A stretch of 34,318 nucleotides of DNA from Candidatus Saccharimonadota bacterium (lineage in GTDB: Bacteria > Patescibacteriota > Saccharimonadia > QS-5-54-17). The DNA is taken from NCBI GenBank assembly GCA_007131065.1, contig SLRF01000049.1, positions 1 through 34,318 of the forward strand, read 5' to 3'. A model generated the notes under the pieces. The model made no database searches, had not been told where the DNA came from, and worked only from the letters and a program-made list of their open reading frames with translations. This document shows, one piece after another, positions 10,917-34,318 of this stretch. Position 1 is the stretch's first letter; each line of letters begins with the position of its first letter. The position numbers and the translations under genes are program-made.

Positions 10917-13679
10917 TTATTTGTCTACCTTGGCACCTATAGGGCCCTCTAGAACTGCAAATATTTCCTTCATCTTCGACTCTATATCCCTGTCAGTTAA
11001 GGTCTTATCTACAGCAAGAATCTCTACGTTAACTGTTATCGATCTACCGTTTTTGTCGCGGTACTCCTCTTGGAAATCGAAATTTACGTTAGTTATTCTG
11101 TCTAGATGATCTGCTATATCCTGCCACTGGACATCTTCAGGCGCTACAAACGTTACGTCCCTATAACTGGATTGCAATCTAGGTATCGGCTCAAAATCAG
11201 GAGCGCTCCATAAGCGCAATAGGCTTTCGAGATTAATTTCCGCACAAGCTACCGTATTTTTAAGTTTCTTTTTTGTTGCTATGAGTGGATGTAACTCGCC
11301 ATATAGACCGACAGGTTCACCGTTTACTTCCATCGCTGCCTGCCTTCCAGGGTGCAGGTCGGTACGCTCATCACTAGATATATACCTAACCTGTAGATTA
11401 GCTGTAGATATAATGTGGTCGAGAACACCCTTCACCTTACTGAGACTATTTTCTCCTATGCACACTATTCCAACTACATCTTTTTCCTCTGGAAGTATTT
11501 CATCCAATTGAGCGTGGAAGATTCTAGCAAACTCAAAGAAGCCAAATTCCTTCTCTATTGTAGTATTATTTACTACACTATTTACTAGTCCTGGCAAAAG
11601 TGATCGTCGAAGATACGCCTGCTCTGAACTACGAGGATTCTTGAGTTTAAGATGTTCTTCGGTATTTCCAGCAAAAACTTCGATATCTCTATGGCTGATA
11701 AACGGATAAGTTGTAACCTCGTAAAGACCGGAGGCCTTAATATCGTTTCTTAGCGAATCTACCTTAGCTCTTTTAATATCCGGTCTGACATCTGTAGGTA
11801 TGCGATTAGGAAGTGTCGATGGTAGATTTTCTAGCCCAACAATCTTGATTACCTCTTCGTACACATCGGCGGAGTTAGATACATCGGGGCGCCACCACGG
11901 TACAGTAACTCTTATGTAATCATCTAAATTCTCAGCATACCTTCTCGCTCCCATGAACTGCGGATCTTCAGTTATGGCAGAAAGCGGCTGCTCTATAACG
12001 TACCTATCCTTCTCGGGTAATTTCTGCCACTCGCCATCTTCCCTTCGTATATAGTCGCGCGCCTCTATGATTGTATCCCCGCCCACATAAATTGCTACAT
12101 GAGATACGCCGTCGCGCTCTTTCTCATCCAGCTCCACCCATGGCCCGCCCCGGAAAAGCAGATCTCCCGGAGTGAGATTTTCAATGTCGATAGCTTCTCC
12201 GTTTTCGTACTGTTGATGCGCAGTATGGCCGATTGCTATGCCGATTAAGGAGTATATATAGTCAGTTAAATAAGAGCAGTCGAATGCATCCGTTCCATCA
12301 GTCTTAAATCGCGCCCCCAGCTTGTAAGGTTTATCCAGTAACTTACTAGCCTGCTCCTTAATATCGAATTTTTCGGCATCGAACCCTAGAGGCTGTAAGG
12401 ATTCAACTATCTCCTCCTTGGATAATTCCAGTCCTAAGAAAGAGTTTAGTGAGGTGACTCTAACTCCAACGTGCTGGATCCAAGGCCAGGCAGTACGTTC
12501 GCTCTGATAGCTTACTAATTCGGCATCAGTAATGTCCTTGAGCAACTCTAGCGCTCTATGTGTAGCAACCTTAACTGCCTGCAATGGCAAACCACGTTCA
12601 AAGCGAGAGCTTGCCTCGCTACGCAAACCGTTCCTCTTTGCCGTCTTGCGCACAAGAGTGGAGTCGAACGATGCGGCCTCCAGTAGTACCTCCTTAGTCT
12701 TAGCTGTTATCTCAGAATCTTCAGAGCCCATCACCCCTGCAAGGGCTAGAAGCTCTTTATCATCTGCTATCACTAGGTCGCTCGAGCCAAGCATCCTTTC
12801 TGTTCCATCAAGTGTTGTTATTTTCTCTTCATTTTCTGCAAAACGTATGTTGACCTTCCCTTTTATCTCCCCAGCATCGAAGGCATGCAATGGTTGTCCT
12901 GTTTCTAACATGACAAAGTTAGTAATATCTACCACTGCACTGACCGGCTTTATACTATGAAGCCTTAGGTAGTTTTGCATCCATGAAGGAGACGGTATCG
13001 ATGCGTCTTTTATTTTTAGCTTAGTCAAGCAATATTCAGGCACCTCCTCTTGTAGTTGATTAGCGAATAGATCATCTGTATGCTTTTCCTTCTCAAGTAA
13101 CTGCTCGAACCCCTCGAAAGTCAATGCAACTCCAGTATGTGCAGAGACCTCGCGGGCCACCCCCCGATAGCCCTGTAAATCCCAACGGTTGGCCGCCGTA
13201 GTAGTGTCGATAACTATTTGATCACTAGAATACACTTCGCTCAGTGGTAATCCCTCTTCAACTTCATCGCCAAGTTCTAGGATTCCATCATGGTCACTGC
13301 CCAGTCCTAGCTCCTGCTCACTACAAATCATGCCGTGAGAAGTCTTGCCACGGATTTCTGTTTGGTTGATTTTGTGCCCTCCCGGAAGTTCAGCTCCAAT
13401 TCTAGCCAATACTACTCGTTGGCCTTTGCGGATATTAGACGCGCCGCATATCACCTCTAGTTGCTCATCTCGACATGTTACGATAGCAATATTTAGCCTG
13501 TCCGCATTGGGGTGTGGCTTGATATCCTTAATGGTTGCAGTAACGATATTTGAGTCAAAATCAGGAGGATGTATTACGCCCTCCACCTCGATGCCAGCTC
13601 GCTCTAGAGCTTCGCTGACTTGAGTGACGCTTAGATCATCGCCTAGTAATTGGTTCAGTAGTCCGAGTACTATCTTCAT
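10917..13679 (-). CDS. pheT: phenylalanine--tRNA ligase beta subunit with an inserted NlpC/P60-like domain
   Basis: This 920-aa ORF has a tRNA-binding N-domain, B3/4, B5, core and FDX-ACB patterns. It is about 120-150 aa longer than typical PheT. The extra segment (aa ~438-587) has NlpC/P60 motifs. Confidence 0.95.
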   Translation of the reverse strand: MKIVLGLLNQLLGDDLSVTQVSEALERAGIEVEGVIHPPDFDSNIVTATIKDIKPHPNADRLNIAIVTCRDEQLEVICGASNIRKGQRVVLARIGAELPGGHKINQTEIRGKTSHGMICSEQELGLGSDHDGILELGDEVEEGLPLSEVYSSDQIVIDTTTAANRWDLQGYRGVAREVSAHTGVALTFEGFEQLLEKEKHTDDLFANQLQEEVPEYCLTKLKIKDASIPSPSWMQNYLRLHSIKPVSAVVDITNFVMLETGQPLHAFDAGEIKGKVNIRFAENEEKITTLDGTERMLGSSDLVIADDKELLALAGVMGSEDSEITAKTKEVLLEAASFDSTLVRKTAKRNGLRSEASSRFERGLPLQAVKVATHRALELLKDITDAELVSYQSERTAWPWIQHVGVRVTSLNSFLGLELSKEEIVESLQPLGFDAEKFDIKEQASKLLDKPYKLGARFKTDGTDAFDCSYLTDYIYSLIGIAIGHTAHQQYENGEAIDIENLTPGDLLFRGGPWVELDEKERDGVSHVAIYVGGDTIIEARDYIRREDGEWQKLPEKDRYVIEQPLSAITEDPQFMGARRYAENLDDYIRVTVPWWRPDVSNSADVYEEVIKIVGLENLPSTLPNRIPTDVRPDIKRAKVDSLRNDIKASGLYEVTTYPFISHRDIEVFAGNTEEHLKLKNPRSSEQAYLRRSLLPGLVNSVVNNTTIEKEFGFFEFARIFHAQLDEILPEEKDVVGIVCIGENSLSKVKGVLDHIISTANLQVRYISSDERTDLHPGRQAAMEVNGEPVGLYGELHPLIATKKKLKNTVACAEINLESLLRLWSAPDFEPIPRLQSSYRDVTFVAPEDVQWQDIADHLDRITNVNFDFQEEYRDKNGRSITVNVEILAVDKTLTDRDIESKMKEIFAVLEGPIGAKVDK

Positions 13680-27127: not shown

Positions 27128-27540
27128 TGGTGGAGCTGCGGGGAATCGCACCCCGGTCCGCGAGATAACTTCCTATCCTTCTACGAGCATAGTCGATTTA
27201 AAAATGTTCGGACGAATTCACCAAGAAACCGACAAAGAGAAATCGTCTATAGCCGTAATTAAAAATTTGACTGGGTGGATACGGCAACCGCCCTGTCTCA
27301 TCCGAATATATGACATCAGAAAACCGCTATTCGGAGATCACGGAACTGATGGCTGTGGCGTTTAGGCTACAGCTGTCGCAAGGTTTCGAGGCACGAAAGC
27401 TTCAGAAACTGAAGCTAACACACTGTTCACCTTGCTAGTAAATGCGTTTGCATTTGTTGTAGTTGGTCCAGCTAACGTGTAGACCAAACCGGCTCGCAGA
27501 ATAGGTTGTCAAAATACTCACGTCGAAGCTTGTCAGCCCC
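27128..27540 (-). ncRNA. ssrA: tmRNA (one-piece, about 413 nt)
   Basis: The minus strand begins GGGGCTGACAAGCTTCGACG and ends GGACCGGGGTGCGATTCCCCGCAGCTCCACCA (T-arm, acceptor, CCA). A candidate tag ORF starts at nt 90 and ends ..LATAVA-TAA. Confidence 0.92.
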
Positions 27541-33463: not shown

Positions 33464-33505
33464 AAAAATAAAAAACCTGGAATCAAATGATTTCAGGTTT
33501 TTTAT
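33464..33505. terminator. bidirectional intrinsic terminator shared by rplT (+) and rnpB (-)
   Basis: An A-run, then CCTGGAATCA-aa-TGATTTCAGG (33476-33497), then a T-run. The element reads as a terminator on both strands. Confidence 0.75.
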
Positions 33506-33711
33506 TGCAAGACCACGTATAAGCCGGATTCTGTCATTGAAGATAGCTATCTATCTAGTCCCGATATTGCTATCGGGATCAAGCGGGTAGTTGCTTACCG
33601 TCGCCTGGGCTAAGCATATGACGGCTCGCTCCTTGCAGCGGACGGGGTTTACCTCCCTACAATGGTCACCCATCGAGGCTGTGGGCTCTTACCCCACTCT
33701 TTTCACCCTTA

Positions 33712-33836
33712 CCCCGCACCTGAAACCGATAGTGCTTATGCACTTACGTGTAACTTTTTGATATATCTCGATTAAACGGATATATTTCAAAAATCCACCT
33801 ACTTGAACGTAAGTTCAATCGGTTTCAGGTGCGGGG
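33712..33836 (-). repeat. P12 helix of rnpB: perfect 19-bp inverted repeat around an 87-nt AT-rich loop
   Basis: CCCCGCACCTGAAACCGAT (33712-33730) pairs with ATCGGTTTCAGGTGCGGGG (33818-33836). These arms share the 14-nt CCCCGCACCTGAAA with the P3 arms. Confidence 0.85.
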
Positions 33837-33940
33837 CGGTATTGTCTCTGTGGCACTTTCCCTAGGATCACTCCCGGTTGCCGTTAGCAACCGTCCTGCC
33901 CATGCGCTGTCCGGACTTTCCTCCCCGCACCTGAAATCAC

Positions 33941-34189
33941 TTAACGAAAGCCTACTCTTTTCTTCAGCTCCACTAGACCGCGACCGTATCGCTTGAGCTT
34001 ACGTTCACGTTCCTGAGCCAAAGCTTTCGTTAAAAATGCTTCGTAATACACAAGTTGCCAAGGTGTTCCAGTCTTAGTCGCGGAACTGTGGCCTTGGTTG
34101 TGTTGCTTAAATCGCTTCTGCAAATCTGCCGTTGAGCCGATATAGAAACTCCCGTTTTTCTTGCTCCTTAACAGATATACGTAATGCAT
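33941..34189 (-). CDS. small stand-alone GIY-YIG nuclease domain protein (YhbQ/YazA-like, 82 aa), nested inside rnpB P3
   Basis: The protein reads MHYVYLLRSKKNGSFYIGSTADLQKRFKQHNQG....LVYYEAF..ALAQERERKLKRY. This fits the GIY-(10)-YIG, Arg and Glu pattern of the UPF0213/COG2827 group. The ORF is intact and its TAA abuts the 3' arm of the P3 helix. Confidence 0.85.
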   Translation of the reverse strand: MHYVYLLRSKKNGSFYIGSTADLQKRFKQHNQGHSSATKTGTPWQLVYYEAFLTKALAQERERKLKRYGRGLVELKKRVGFR

Positions 34190-34252
34190 ACAGCGATTTT
34201 AGCATAGTGATTTCAGGTGCGGGGTAGCTATCCAGTGATCTTGCAATTAGAA

Positions 34253-34281
34253 ATTATAGAAGTCTATCGGCTTTTCTGCAA
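34253..34281 (-). promoter_or_regulatory. rnpB promoter
   Basis: The minus strand reads TTGCAG (rc 34276-34281), a 17-nt spacer, then TATAAT (rc 34253-34258). P1 starts 8 nt further on, at G 34244. Confidence 0.65.
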
Positions 34282-34318
34282 ATCAGATTCTTCATCAAGT
34301 ATAATGTTGACCTGTTCG

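Follow-up and report, generated by a model that had tools for sequence, protein, structure and literature searches.

A GIY-YIG nuclease gene in a hairpin cassette at the P3 position of a Saccharibacteria RNase P RNA gene

RNase P RNA is one of few universal ribozymes, and the locus described here raises the question of how a gene for such an RNA comes to house an intact protein-coding gene. We analysed 34,318 nt of Saccharibacteria (CPR) DNA (GCA_007131065.1, contig SLRF01000049.1, positions 1-34,318), hereafter the window. A first-pass annotation of this DNA had placed a type-A rnpB on the minus strand and, nested at its P3, an 82-codon GIY-YIG open reading frame (ORF); both the host gene and the nesting proved to be real. 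Our literature searches found no report of a GIY-YIG, homing endonuclease or other protein-coding gene inside RNase P RNA, and nothing relevant on RNase P in CPR or on YhbQ with GIY-YIG. The novelty originally claimed was nevertheless overstated: non-intron GIY-YIG insertions in CPR rRNA genes have been published (PMC11270868), whereas the RNase P RNA case is unreported in the literature we found. Labels such as L001, L003 and L011 denote loci in other assemblies that were compared with the window.

The rnpB gene occupies positions 33507-34244 of the minus strand (738 nt including insertions at P3 and P12). It is recognized by a match to the Rfam model RF00010 on that strand (214 bits, against a gathering score of 100), by P1/P2 pairing and by its in-silico fold. 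With a tetraloop substituted for the P3 cassette and the loop of L001 for the P12 insert, the gene would be 368 nt long. CR-I (GAGGAAAGTCCGG), GGTAAGGGTGAAA and CR-V (ACAGAATCCGGCTTAT) were all found, and the elements from CR-I to CR-V follow one another in the annotated order. The 5′ strand of P1 (GCAAGATCAC, 34244-34235) pairs with 33516-33507, and the 5′ strand of P2 (TGGATAGCTA, 34234-34225) pairs with 33549-33541. P1 and P2 have equal geometry and different sequences in L011, L013, L014, L019 and L100, making six lineages with the window. The rest of the gene (33507-33922, minus strand) comprises CR-I, P5-P11, P12, GGTAAGGGTGAAA, P13/14, P15-P18, CR-V and the 3′ strands of P2 and P1, and aligns to the covariance model with high posterior probability.

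Covariance-model matching thus recovered the gene but did not place P1-P3 as first described. Because the model cannot bridge the 264-nt insert, an ordinary cmscan wrongly puts P1-P3 inside the tail of the ORF (model start 33965), with many non-canonical pairs and posterior values of 0.3-0.7; the pairing of P1 and P2 comes from direct comparison of the six lineages. The ribozyme core folds identically in silico with and without the P3 and P12 inserts and, judged from its sequence, the catalytic core of rnpB is intact. A putative bidirectional terminator hairpin (AAAAAACCTGAAATCA / TGATTCCAGGTTTTTT, 33467-33506, with T runs on both sides) lies in the gap between rnpB and rplT. It was not called by a pattern scan, probably because its stem has few G-C pairs.

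Between P2 and CR-I, at the P3 position, the gene contains a 302-nt module (33923-34224, minus strand) that consists of a left arm, a 16-nt leader, the GIY-YIG ORF and a right arm. The left arm (CCCCGCACCTGAAATCACT, 34206-34224) is the 5′ strand of the P3/cassette helix and is 100% complementary to the right arm (AGTGATTTCAGGTGCGGGG, 33923-33941), which forms the 3′ strand and directly adjoins CR-I. This inverted repeat (33923-33941 / 34206-34224, arms 264 nt apart) is perfect, as had been noted, but measures 19 bp and not 18 bp. The leader (ATGCTAAAATCGCTGT, 34190-34205) is followed by the ORF of 82 codons plus TAA (33941-34189); the final A of this stop codon doubles as the first base of the 3′ arm.

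The ORF encodes a UPF0213/YhbQ-like protein of 82 amino acids that is a GIY-YIG catalytic domain alone, with no DNA-binding or other extra domain. The annotated domain was confirmed by a match to PF01541 (E 9.6e-20; 71.1 bits against a cut-off of 22.6; profile positions 1-70 of 78). Its nearest solved structures are those of UPF0213 protein BH0048 (1zg2, E 1.4e-7) and 1ywl (E 1.9e-4), followed weakly by SLX1. All cassette copies keep the YVY, FYIG, R and E motifs. The protein therefore resembles UPF0213/YhbQ/YazA and the Slx1 URI domain both in its best structure matches and in being a small single-domain protein. To our knowledge, UPF0213 genes in model bacteria are free-standing and have never been described inside RNA genes or between inverted repeats.

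A pattern scan upstream of the ORF on the minus strand returned one promoter-like match, TTTGCA-18-TATAAT (equivalently TTGCAG-17-TATAAT; 34282-34253), located 8 nt ahead of P1, in agreement with the annotated view that the rnpB promoter is the sole promoter. TATAAT is equally far from P1 in L011, L013, L014 and L019. The 5′ arm and the ATG are separated by 16-17 nt, which rules out a separate ORF promoter between them because there is too little room. The ORF would be transcribed solely within the rnpB precursor. As annotated for this ORF, a Shine-Dalgarno sequence is missing, and none was found in the cassette in any copy compared. Most of the leader (34192-34204) pairs with ORF codons 25-29 (AGCGATTTAAGCA, 34104-34116, encoding K-R-F-K-Q), as identified by inverted-repeat search and covariation; leader and ORF pair likewise in L003 and L004. 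The start codon would be partly sequestered, leading to low translation, much as the start codon of I-TevI is sequestered in RNA structure. In a third helix, TTAACGAAAGC inside the ORF (34023-34033) pairs with the last codons and stop (GCTTTCGTTAA, 33941-33951).

The first-pass annotation took the long helix to be an elongated native P3 that houses the gene. That interpretation does not stand: helix and ORF form a self-contained module of ~300 nt that has the same arms and spacing outside rnpB, and P3 is short in relatives. The module is 299-303 nt long in nine copies from three kinds of locus, with arms 262-264 nt apart outside rnpB. Its recurrent parts are a closing helix of 18-20 bp (starting CCCCGCAC.../...GTGCGGGG), a leader of 15-17 nt and an ORF of 82-85 codons. 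In rnpB, the P3 cassette is present in at least seven lineages (window/L001, L011, L013, L014-17, L019-22, L100 and L144), and the proteins encoded there have 53-81% amino-acid identity to the window protein. Outside rnpB, the module was found in an rpsF leader (L003, L018) and at a hairpin apex in the leader that precedes a small ORF and dinB (L004-L010). Its sites, in rnpB, the rpsF leader and the small-ORF/dinB leader, are hairpin tips shortly downstream of promoters of strongly expressed genes.

Comparison of the cassette copies points to selection on both the protein and the RNA. Values of pN are 0.12-0.24 against pS values of 0.59-1.03 (at least 0.75 in 19 of 21 pairs), and dN/dS is 0.05-0.11 where computable, a pattern that indicates strong purifying selection on the nuclease ORF. 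Synonymous sites are saturated between the rnpB-borne copies, implying that many insertions are old and stably inherited, which suits domestication as well as ongoing mobility. In the closing helix, 8 of 18 pairs have changed on both sides and 96% of cells are paired across nine copies; in the 13-bp leader-ORF helix, five pairs have changed on both sides and 90% are paired. Taken together, the two helices have 93% of cells paired and 13 both-side changes, a result matched by 0 of 500 shuffles (slid controls are 36-46% paired). RNAalifold applied to the nine-copy alignment recovered compensatory changes in the third helix (columns 198-206 / 276-284), where a synonymous Thr codon position covaries with an R/G/S codon. 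The MFE of the cassette is -117.8 kcal/mol, compared with -77.7 +/- 4.65 kcal/mol for shuffles (z = -8.6). Covariation in these three helices, of which two lie within the coding sequence, indicates that the RNA fold of the cassette is also under selection.

The closing helix would stack on the P3 stem and turn the insert into a self-contained peripheral domain, with the core (P1-P4, CR-I to CR-V) still able to form. An RNase III-type enzyme would then cut the insert out at the closing helix, or the insert would stay in place as an expansion segment. By analogy with known insertions we lean slightly towards excision, for which RNase III is a plausible agent; a helix of 18-19 bp is at the short end of the range for RNase III substrates. 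Excision would yield a structured nuclease mRNA and leave the ribozyme in two pieces, joined through P1, P2, the P3 stump and P4.

Intervening sequences (IVS) of 23S rRNA in Salmonella, Leptospira and Coxiella are excised by RNase III without religation, and the host RNA stays functional; some of their ORFs belong to the 23S_rRNA_IVP/S23p family. Like the cassette, IVS are sporadic helix-tip insertions in a stable RNA gene that can contain an ORF and whose complementary ends form a long stem. Unlike IVS, the cassette encodes a nuclease rather than a four-helix-bundle IVP, is also found in mRNA leaders, and has as host a ribozyme that would become two-piece; its excision is a prediction. Insertions in CPR rRNA are likewise reportedly removed from the mature RNA (Brown et al., 2015).

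Alternatively, the insert might never be excised. The mature RNase P RNA would then be a continuous molecule of ~740 nt with a folded 264-nt domain at P3, and the same or the nascent molecule would serve as the nuclease mRNA. Lengths of P3 and P12 vary naturally in bacterial RNase P RNA (for example, through repeat insertions in cyanobacterial P12), and these peripheral helices tolerate extension without loss of function. We know of no natural P3 or P12 extension that encodes protein. Natural extensions of 26-46 nt are present in the relatives L075 and L014. A compact closed fold with covariation throughout would be expected of an RNA that persists as a folded domain, and the unaltered core fold predicted with both inserts in place is consistent with this account. 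A ribosome terminating at the TAA must, however, unwind the closing helix, which would make translation and ribozyme folding mutually exclusive on one molecule. In addition, the precedents, 23S rRNA IVS and CPR rRNA insertions, are removed from mature RNA (PMC11270868). We therefore treat retention as possible, with odds that fall short of even. Cleavage at the closing helix would mean that RNase P RNA is naturally fragmented in these bacteria; without cleavage, a single RNA would act as an essential ribozyme and also as an mRNA.

Several observations bear on how the cassette arrived at P3. First, comparison with related rnpB loci revealed empty sites: P3 is short and empty in at least 11 related rnpB genes, including L135 (CCCCGCC-TAT-GGCGGGG) and L099. 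Second, decayed forms were identified. ORF-less P3 hairpins with cassette-like arms are clear in L048 and less clear in L066, L075 and L127, and the copy in L003/L018 is frameshifted by 1 nt close to the ORF start. The metagenome samples that yielded L001 also contain an rpsF-leader remnant in which cassette positions 1-10 and 276-302 survive; it matches the right end of the window rnpB copy at 27 of 27 bases. Third, ORF-less hairpins share their arms with an ORF-bearing copy of the same genome (at P12 in the window and L011, and in L100). Finally, ORF-bearing and empty genes are interspersed in an NJ tree of rnpB cores (13 sequences, identity distances, variable insertions), which suggests repeated gain and loss of the cassette, and cassette copies do not cluster by locus, a distribution that fits movement or exchange between loci.

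Comparison of occupied with empty sites (L013 with L135, and the window with L001) revealed no target-site duplication at the junctions. Searches of viral contigs by arm pattern and by protein returned no cassette and thus gave no sign of phage carriage. A metagenome survey gave at least 120 matches, mostly from other phyla; 24 CPR-like rnpB genes among the matches listed were usable, and fractions derived from them are rough. A scan of genome contigs with GGAAAGTCCGGACNNCNCANGGGCAGG used too specific a pattern, and its sole match was an ordinary Actinomycetota rnpB (L012, 296 bits).

The second insertion in the window rnpB belongs with the first. P12 (33712-33836, minus strand) contains a 113-nt ORF-less insertion (33718-33830) whose arms repeat the cassette arm CCCCGCACCTGAAA. 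This 14-mer occurs four times in the window, always in rnpB, against 0.08 occurrences expected, and 0 of 100 shuffles reach four. The insertion had been annotated as an oddity of its own; it proves to be a hairpin with cassette arms and no ORF, and it is polymorphic between near-identical strains, with a 17-nt loop in its place in L001/L002. L011 has a P12 insertion with arms that match the P3 arms of its own genome. The P12 insertion is strongly folded (z = -11 against shuffled sequences). Beyond the arms, its sole similarity to the cassette is an 18/21 match to the ORF, in a nearly palindromic segment and with a score that 1 of 500 shuffles reaches, which gives a weak hint that the insert might be a decayed inverted cassette copy. 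A perfect pairing of 16 nt is also possible between the 5′ arm of P3 and the 3′ arm of the P12 hairpin. Such pairing would misfold the ribozyme, a cost that the explanation we favour leaves unexplained.

The locus contains a GIY-YIG cassette at the P3 tip and an ORF-less hairpin of the same kind at the P12 tip. We consider it probable that these elements target hairpin loops, are co-transcribed with the host RNA and are structurally insulated from it. Our best reading of the comparative data is that the cassette behaves like a small mobile element hidden in structured RNAs. These data suggest the loop of a CCCCGC/GCGGGG hairpin as the target. At the DNA level, the nuclease would most likely promote copying of the cassette into such loops in a homing-like process, which would account for the recurrence at CCCCGC/GCGGGG sites and for the matching arms of copies within one genome. 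At loci outside rnpB, CCCCGC/GCGGGG may be part of the target or may be carried by the cassette. Site-specific homing is not an obvious activity for this nuclease, because its 82 aa make up a catalytic domain alone, without a DNA-binding domain; characterised GIY-YIG homing endonucleases have one.

Could the nuclease instead be a domesticated housekeeping gene? The GIY-YIG protein would then serve the host (for example, in DNA repair of the YhbQ/Slx1 kind), its gene being no longer mobile and fixed behind strong, constitutive promoters that belong to genes for stable RNAs and ribosomal proteins, and the helices would be a device for expression or processing (mRNA release, stabilisation or translational control) rather than transposon ends. 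This would be consistent with the strong purifying selection, with synonymous divergence that is saturated between lineages, with the conserved RNA structure within the coding region and with the occupation of one site in at least seven lineages, down to ~53% identity; the related UPF0213 and SLX1 proteins are also cellular enzymes and not homing enzymes. Domestication is hard to reconcile with an empty P3 in many related rnpB genes, with ORF-less remnants in P3, P12 and the rpsF leader, with the 1-nt frameshift in L003/L018 and with a P12 hairpin that is present or absent between near-identical strains. One identical architecture at three unrelated host loci, in copies that do not group by locus, also speaks against it, and such frequent loss and solo hairpins are unexpected for a housekeeping gene. 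We judge domestication to be unlikely.

The mobile-element reading can be compared with other selfish elements. Homing endonuclease genes (I-TevI, Seg proteins) similarly place a nuclease ORF at a fixed site and are present, absent or decayed among relatives. Here, in contrast, there is no intron or intein and no DNA-binding domain, and ORFs are intact over saturated synonymous divergence. MITEs and REP/RAYT elements share with the cassette inverted-repeat ends, ORF-less derivatives with shared arms and occurrence at several unrelated loci (three kinds here). They differ from it in that the cassette has no target-site duplication, has an apparently very low copy number per genome and is found at hairpin tips of transcribed RNAs. 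We know of no transposase role for GIY-YIG in MITE- or REP-type elements.

More tentatively, and with somewhat less than even confidence, we propose that the cassette represents an undescribed class of selfish element. Such an element would be a ~300-nt cassette with a bare GIY-YIG domain that has as its target the loops of CCCCGC/GCGGGG hairpins, in RNAs transcribed at high levels, borrows the host promoter and is self-neutralised by its closed RNA fold. Its closing helix would extend the host hairpin and be a probable RNase III site, and the Saccharibacteria clade concerned would have either a two-piece RNase P RNA or a combined ribozyme-mRNA.

Non-intron GIY-YIG insertions, 30 in all, occur sporadically at the top or base of stem-loops in CPR 16S and 23S rRNA genes (Tsurumaki et al., 2024; PMC11270868). 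The insertions described here are like them in their CPR host, PF01541 domain, non-intron nature, sporadic distribution and location in a stem-loop of an essential stable RNA gene, and unlike them in that the host is rnpB or an mRNA leader and not 16S or 23S rRNA. The terms 'inverted repeat' and 'RNase P' have 0 occurrences in that paper, which does not describe bounding repeats, conserved internal RNA structure or mRNA-leader copies (PMC11270868). The module, with its arms, leader, ORF and three helices, would link the unexplained GIY-YIG insertions of CPR rRNA genes to those of a ribozyme gene and mRNA leaders. The 16S sequence in the window (677 nt) is free of insertion.

A spliced or self-splicing group I or II intron with a homing endonuclease gene, as in phages and organelles, would be a familiar setting for a GIY-YIG ORF, a typical group I intron passenger, and the ORF weakly matches the NCBIfam model TIGR01453 'group I intron endonuclease' (32 bits against a cut-off of 56, through the shared catalytic motif alone). 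This reading is effectively refuted: only ~53 of the 302 nt are non-coding, one simple helix leaves no room for a ribozyme core, and a permissive Rfam search of 33480-34270 (E <= 1) found no intron family. GIY-YIG ORFs in CPR rRNA genes are also all in non-intron insertions (PMC11270868). A chimeric assembly or a dead rnpB pseudogene is extremely improbable: contigs of this population often end near rnpB (L001 shortly after it, L002 inside it), which suggests that the repeats trouble assemblers, but an artefact is rejected by the recurrence of identical junctions in independent ENA, Logan, JGI and NCBI MAG assemblies from lineages that differ throughout, compensatory substitutions separate the arms and P1/P2 of these lineages, and the conserved regions are intact, with scores of 186-218 bits despite the mis-modelled P1-P3.

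The cassette at P3, whether mobile or not, has consequences for annotation. RF00010 aligns normally to relatives with an empty P3 (226-259 bits, compared with 186-218 bits for ORF-bearing rnpB genes), and the insertions cost ~40 bits of score and misplace the 5′ end of the gene. Through this lost score and misplaced end, automatic annotation of CPR genomes would mis-annotate or miss rnpB. If true, undetected genes of this kind could contribute to the apparently missing RNase P RNA in CPR annotations. In at least one lineage (for example, L144), the rnpB gene with its insertion falls below the standard covariance-model detection threshold.

We read an interrupted type-A RNase P RNA gene (rnpB, 33507-34244) on the minus strand of 33505-34282, within the 34 kb of the genome covered by the window. 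A promoter-like site (TTTGCA-18-TATAAT, 34282-34253) is separated by an 8-nt spacer from the P1 5' strand (GCAAGATCAC, 34244-34235), which is followed by the P2 5' strand (TGGATAGCTA, 34234-34225) and the left arm of a closing helix (CCCCGCACCTGAAATCACT, 34224-34206). A 16-nt leader precedes an ORF of 82 codons, ATG to TAA (34189-33941), and the right arm (AGTGATTTCAGGTGCGGGG, 33941-33923). Without a gap, the right arm is followed by AGGAAAGTCCGG and the remaining type-A RNase P RNA, to the 3' end GTGGTCTTGC (33516-33507) and a terminator hairpin. The arms are 19 nt each, 100% complementary and 264 nt apart. The rnpB gene scores 214 bits against RF00010 (gathering score 100), and the nested ORF matches the GIY-YIG domain (PF01541, E 9.6e-20); the nearest solved structures to its product are UPF0213 (1zg2, E 1.4e-7) and next, weakly, SLX1. 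The RF00010 and PF01541 matches and the complementary arms confirm the coordinates and description in the first-pass annotation, which had reported a GIY-YIG ORF nested in rnpB.

The proposed placement of P2, P3 and P4 holds, although a plain cmscan search does not recover it. The cmscan match begins at 33965, within the ORF tail, and its P1-P3 is full of non-standard pairs with low posterior probability, because the model cannot handle the 264-nt insertion. Four agreeing observations keep this from counting as counter-evidence. First, P1 (10-12 bp) and P2 (9 bp) form between the 20 nt that precede the left arm and, respectively, the gene's 3' end and the segment preceding CR-V. Second, this geometry is repeated, with differing sequences, in five other ORF-bearing lineages. 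Third, ORF-less related rnpB genes score 226-259 bits against RF00010 and align normally in P1-P3, versus 186-218 bits for ORF-bearing genes. Finally, P1 and the closing helix form in an unconstrained in-silico fold of the 742-nt RNA, whose core is the same as in a 368-nt version carrying GAAA in place of the cassette and the loop of L001, a contig from a near-identical strain, in place of an insertion in P12; the Rfam model itself spans 367 positions.

The window protein and its junctions are identical on two ENA contigs (L001 and L002), and homologues with 53-81% identity occupy the same P3 position in a Logan assembly (L011), two NCBI MAGs (L013, GCA_039738715.1; L014, GCA_964527485.1), further Logan and JGI contigs (L015-L017, L019-L022), a JGI metagenome contig (L100) and a widely sampled ENA organism (L144/L145). 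The same junctions on ENA, Logan, JGI and NCBI assemblies exclude an assembly chimera; the cassette is neither an artefact nor unique to the window. Homologue names all point to Saccharibacteria/Patescibacteria, and of the 11 protein clusters inspected for their genomic surroundings, 6 lie at rnpB P3. The entire rnpB and cassette of L019 are inverted relative to the neighbouring rplT and rnhA. In L144 (2001-3040, ENA ERZ27313581), whose rnpB carries a P3 GIY-YIG cassette and many insertions, ~680 nt separate CR-I from CR-V and there is no RF00010 match at the gathering threshold; CR-I, CR-V, P1, P2 and canonical cassette ends are readable, and the ORF predicted by gene callers is too long, running across P1-P3 to reach 103 aa. 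Such rnpB genes would go undetected or mis-annotated in CPR genomes.

The first-pass annotation treated the ORF as housed in P3. Its nesting there stands, but helix and ORF together form a module that also occurs outside rnpB. Module arms begin CCCCGCAC.../...GTGCGGGG with 262-264 nt between them, the leader is 15-17 nt and lacks a Shine-Dalgarno sequence, the stop codon touches or overlaps the right arm, and the total length is 299-303 nt. One copy, in L003 and L018, lies between the rpsF promoter and ribosome-binding site and has a 1-nt frameshift near the start of its ORF. At a second kind of locus outside rnpB, in L004-L010, the module caps a covarying host hairpin ~18 nt past a TATAAT box, within the leader (~250 nt) of a small-ORF/dinB operon. 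A host promoter lies just upstream of the module in every case, and in none does the module contain a promoter-like sequence of its own. Amino-acid identity does not group by locus: relative to the window rnpB copy, it is 78% for the rpsF copy, 72% for the L019 rnpB copy and 57% for the L100 rnpB copy. The 3' flank of the rpsF-leader cassette (GGGGCGGAGTCC, L003 3240-3262; GGGGCGAAGTCC, L149 1470-1490) resembles the rnpB-CR-I junction GGGGAGGAAAGTCC (window 33905-33926), a likeness that may be chance or part of a shared target site.

A metagenome scan for rnpB yielded at least 24 CPR-like genes among the matches listed. Among these listed matches, at least 11 of the 24 have a short P3 (for example L135, CCCCGCC-TAT-GGCGGGG, and L099, CCCCGCC-ATA-GGTGGGG), one (L100) carries a divergent 85-codon GIY-YIG ORF, and several have an ORF-less extended P3. 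The flanks of the empty L135 site closely match those of the ORF-bearing L013. The ORF-less P3 of L048 has cassette-like arms (CCCCGCACCTTTTGCAGA, 33 nt, TCTGAAAAAGGTGCGGGG); the likeness is less clear in L066, L075 and L127. ORF-less hairpins also occur elsewhere in rnpB. The window P12 contains a 113-nt hairpin whose arms repeat the cassette arm's first 14 nt, where the otherwise near-identical L001/L002 have a 17-nt loop on the same CCCCGC/GCGGGG stem. The L011 P12 hairpin arms match that gene's own P3 arms over 17 nt. Parallel to these P12 hairpins, L100 has, besides its P3 cassette, a hairpin just 5' of CR-V (105-168, rnpB minus strand), with arms (CCCGCACCATTTCA / TGAAAAGGTGCGGG) resembling those of its cassette. 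Outside its arms, the P12 insert resembles the ORF only weakly. Over 16 nt, the P3 cassette's 5' arm (window 34211-34226) is also a perfect complement of the P12 hairpin's 3' arm (33710-33725), a long-range alternative pairing that would misfold the ribozyme.

In the rpsF leader of L149-L151, from the same samples as L001, CCCCGCACCT is joined to TTTCGTTAAGTGATTTCAGGTGCGGGG, corresponding to cassette positions 1-10 and 276-302; this sequence is a deletion remnant of the cassette. Its right piece is identical at 27/27 bases to the right end of the window rnpB copy, including the lineage-specific distal arm, which shows that this population's rpsF-leader and rnpB copies had one sequence in common until recently. 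Overall, the comparisons show a pattern of cassette gain, inter-locus exchange, decay and loss. A crude rnpB tree of 13 sequences mixes occupied with empty genes. Separately, window 33505-34246 and L001 3260-3987 have no differences in ~490 nt 5' of P12, and differ by the P12 insertion and three substitutions in ~250 nt 3' of it, suggesting that strains of one population have recombined with a breakpoint at P12.

Both protein and RNA fold are under selection. ORF copies differ by 0.07-0.24 non-synonymous and 0.59-1.03 synonymous changes per site, the latter largely saturated (>= 0.75 in 19/21 pairs); dN/dS, where computable, is 0.05-0.11, and the protein is therefore functional. In an alignment of nine cassette copies, the closing helix (18 bp counted) has 96% of cells paired and 8 pairs changed on both sides, and a helix between the leader and codons 25-29 (13 bp) has 90% and 5 pairs. 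No shuffle (0/500) reached the observed pairing and covariation, and sliding the partner columns lowers pairing to 36-46%. A third helix, predicted by RNAalifold, joins ACGAAAGC (codons ~54-57) to GCTTTCGT (last codons); in it, position 3 of a Thr codon covaries with position 1 of an Arg/Gly/Ser codon. Within the closing helix, the 10 proximal bp hardly vary, even outside rnpB, suggesting that some factor recognises the helix base by sequence; the distal 8 bp covary freely. The 302-nt cassette RNA has a minimum free energy of -117.8 kcal/mol versus -77.7 +/- 4.65 for shuffles (z = -8.6), with the start codon inside a helix of the predicted fold. The P12 insert folds with z = -11.

At the P3 tip of this otherwise intact rnpB sits a discrete cassette that is recurrent and structurally closed and encodes a nuclease under selection; the P12 tip of the same gene carries an ORF-less form. 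The ORF would be transcribed from the rnpB promoter and its translation would be weak. The closing helix would stack on the P3 stem, allowing the ribozyme core to fold. We lean slightly towards cleavage of the cassette RNA, with an RNase III-type enzyme cutting the closing helix, following the precedent of 23S rRNA intervening sequences and CPR rRNA insertions (PMC11270868); retention as an expansion segment is a possible but less probable fate. At the DNA level, the nuclease probably promotes copying of the cassette into hairpin loops, given its recurrence at CCCCGC/GCGGGG hairpins, the absence of target duplications at insertion sites, the remnants, and the arms that match one another within a genome. 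This copying step is weakened by a protein consisting of the catalytic domain only and by the old age of many insertions. The rival reading, that the cassette is a domesticated gene, seems to us less probable.

The nearest published case comprises 30 GIY-YIG ORFs in non-intron insertions of CPR 16S/23S rRNA genes, mostly at stem-loop tops or bases (PMC11270868); the host there is rRNA, whereas here it is RNase P RNA. RNase P and inverted repeats do not come up in that paper. Literature searches for an ORF or homing endonuclease within rnpB returned nothing beyond papers on fungal mitochondrial genomes with an uninterrupted rnpB, and those for RNase P in CPR returned nothing. The cassette is the same sort of element as the CPR rRNA insertions, and its host RNA is new and more striking. 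Also newly described are the module anatomy, mRNA-leader copies, remnants and conserved internal RNA fold.

Relatives hold further GIY-YIG and stable-RNA associations. L008/L009 (292-791) encode a second, different GIY-YIG ORF (78 aa) that lies, with the following tRNA gene, within a perfect 22-nt inverted repeat (ACCTGCCTGCCGGCAGGCAGGC). This palindrome also occurs inside the expanded L144 rnpB (about 2432-2452, ACCTGCCTGCCGGCAGGCAGG) and may represent a separate palindromic repeat family in CPR genomes. L146 (1880-2320) encodes a homologue with 58% identity and a Shine-Dalgarno sequence, flanked by a duplicated 23-nt tRNA-Glu(UUC) 5' fragment and the intact tRNA gene, with a serine recombinase gene adjoining; here again the protein family is associated with a stable RNA gene. 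L013 has a free-standing ORF (132-443) of the 23S_rRNA_IVP family (PF05635), whose members typify rRNA intervening sequences, ~2 kb upstream of its cassette-bearing rnpB. An RNase H gene is immediately upstream of rnpB in Saccharibacteria loci (most CPR rnpB loci) and likewise in L012 (2911-4441), an unrelated Actinomycetota contig; this adjacency may be an old rnhA-rnpB linkage or coincidence.

Two other window genes are unusual. In the PheRS beta chain (10917-13679, minus strand), which comprises B3_4, B5, core and FDX-ACB domains, residues 450-541 form an NlpC/P60 peptidase domain (PF00877, E 2.6e-14) between B3_4 and B5, an unusual domain insertion for an aminoacyl-tRNA synthetase subunit. 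The tmRNA (27128-27540, minus strand) has a ~58-nt insertion in its coding region in the Rfam alignment, and its tag peptide as predicted by ARAGORN, ANAFTSKVNSVLASVSEAFVPRNLATAVA, is unusually long at 29 residues.
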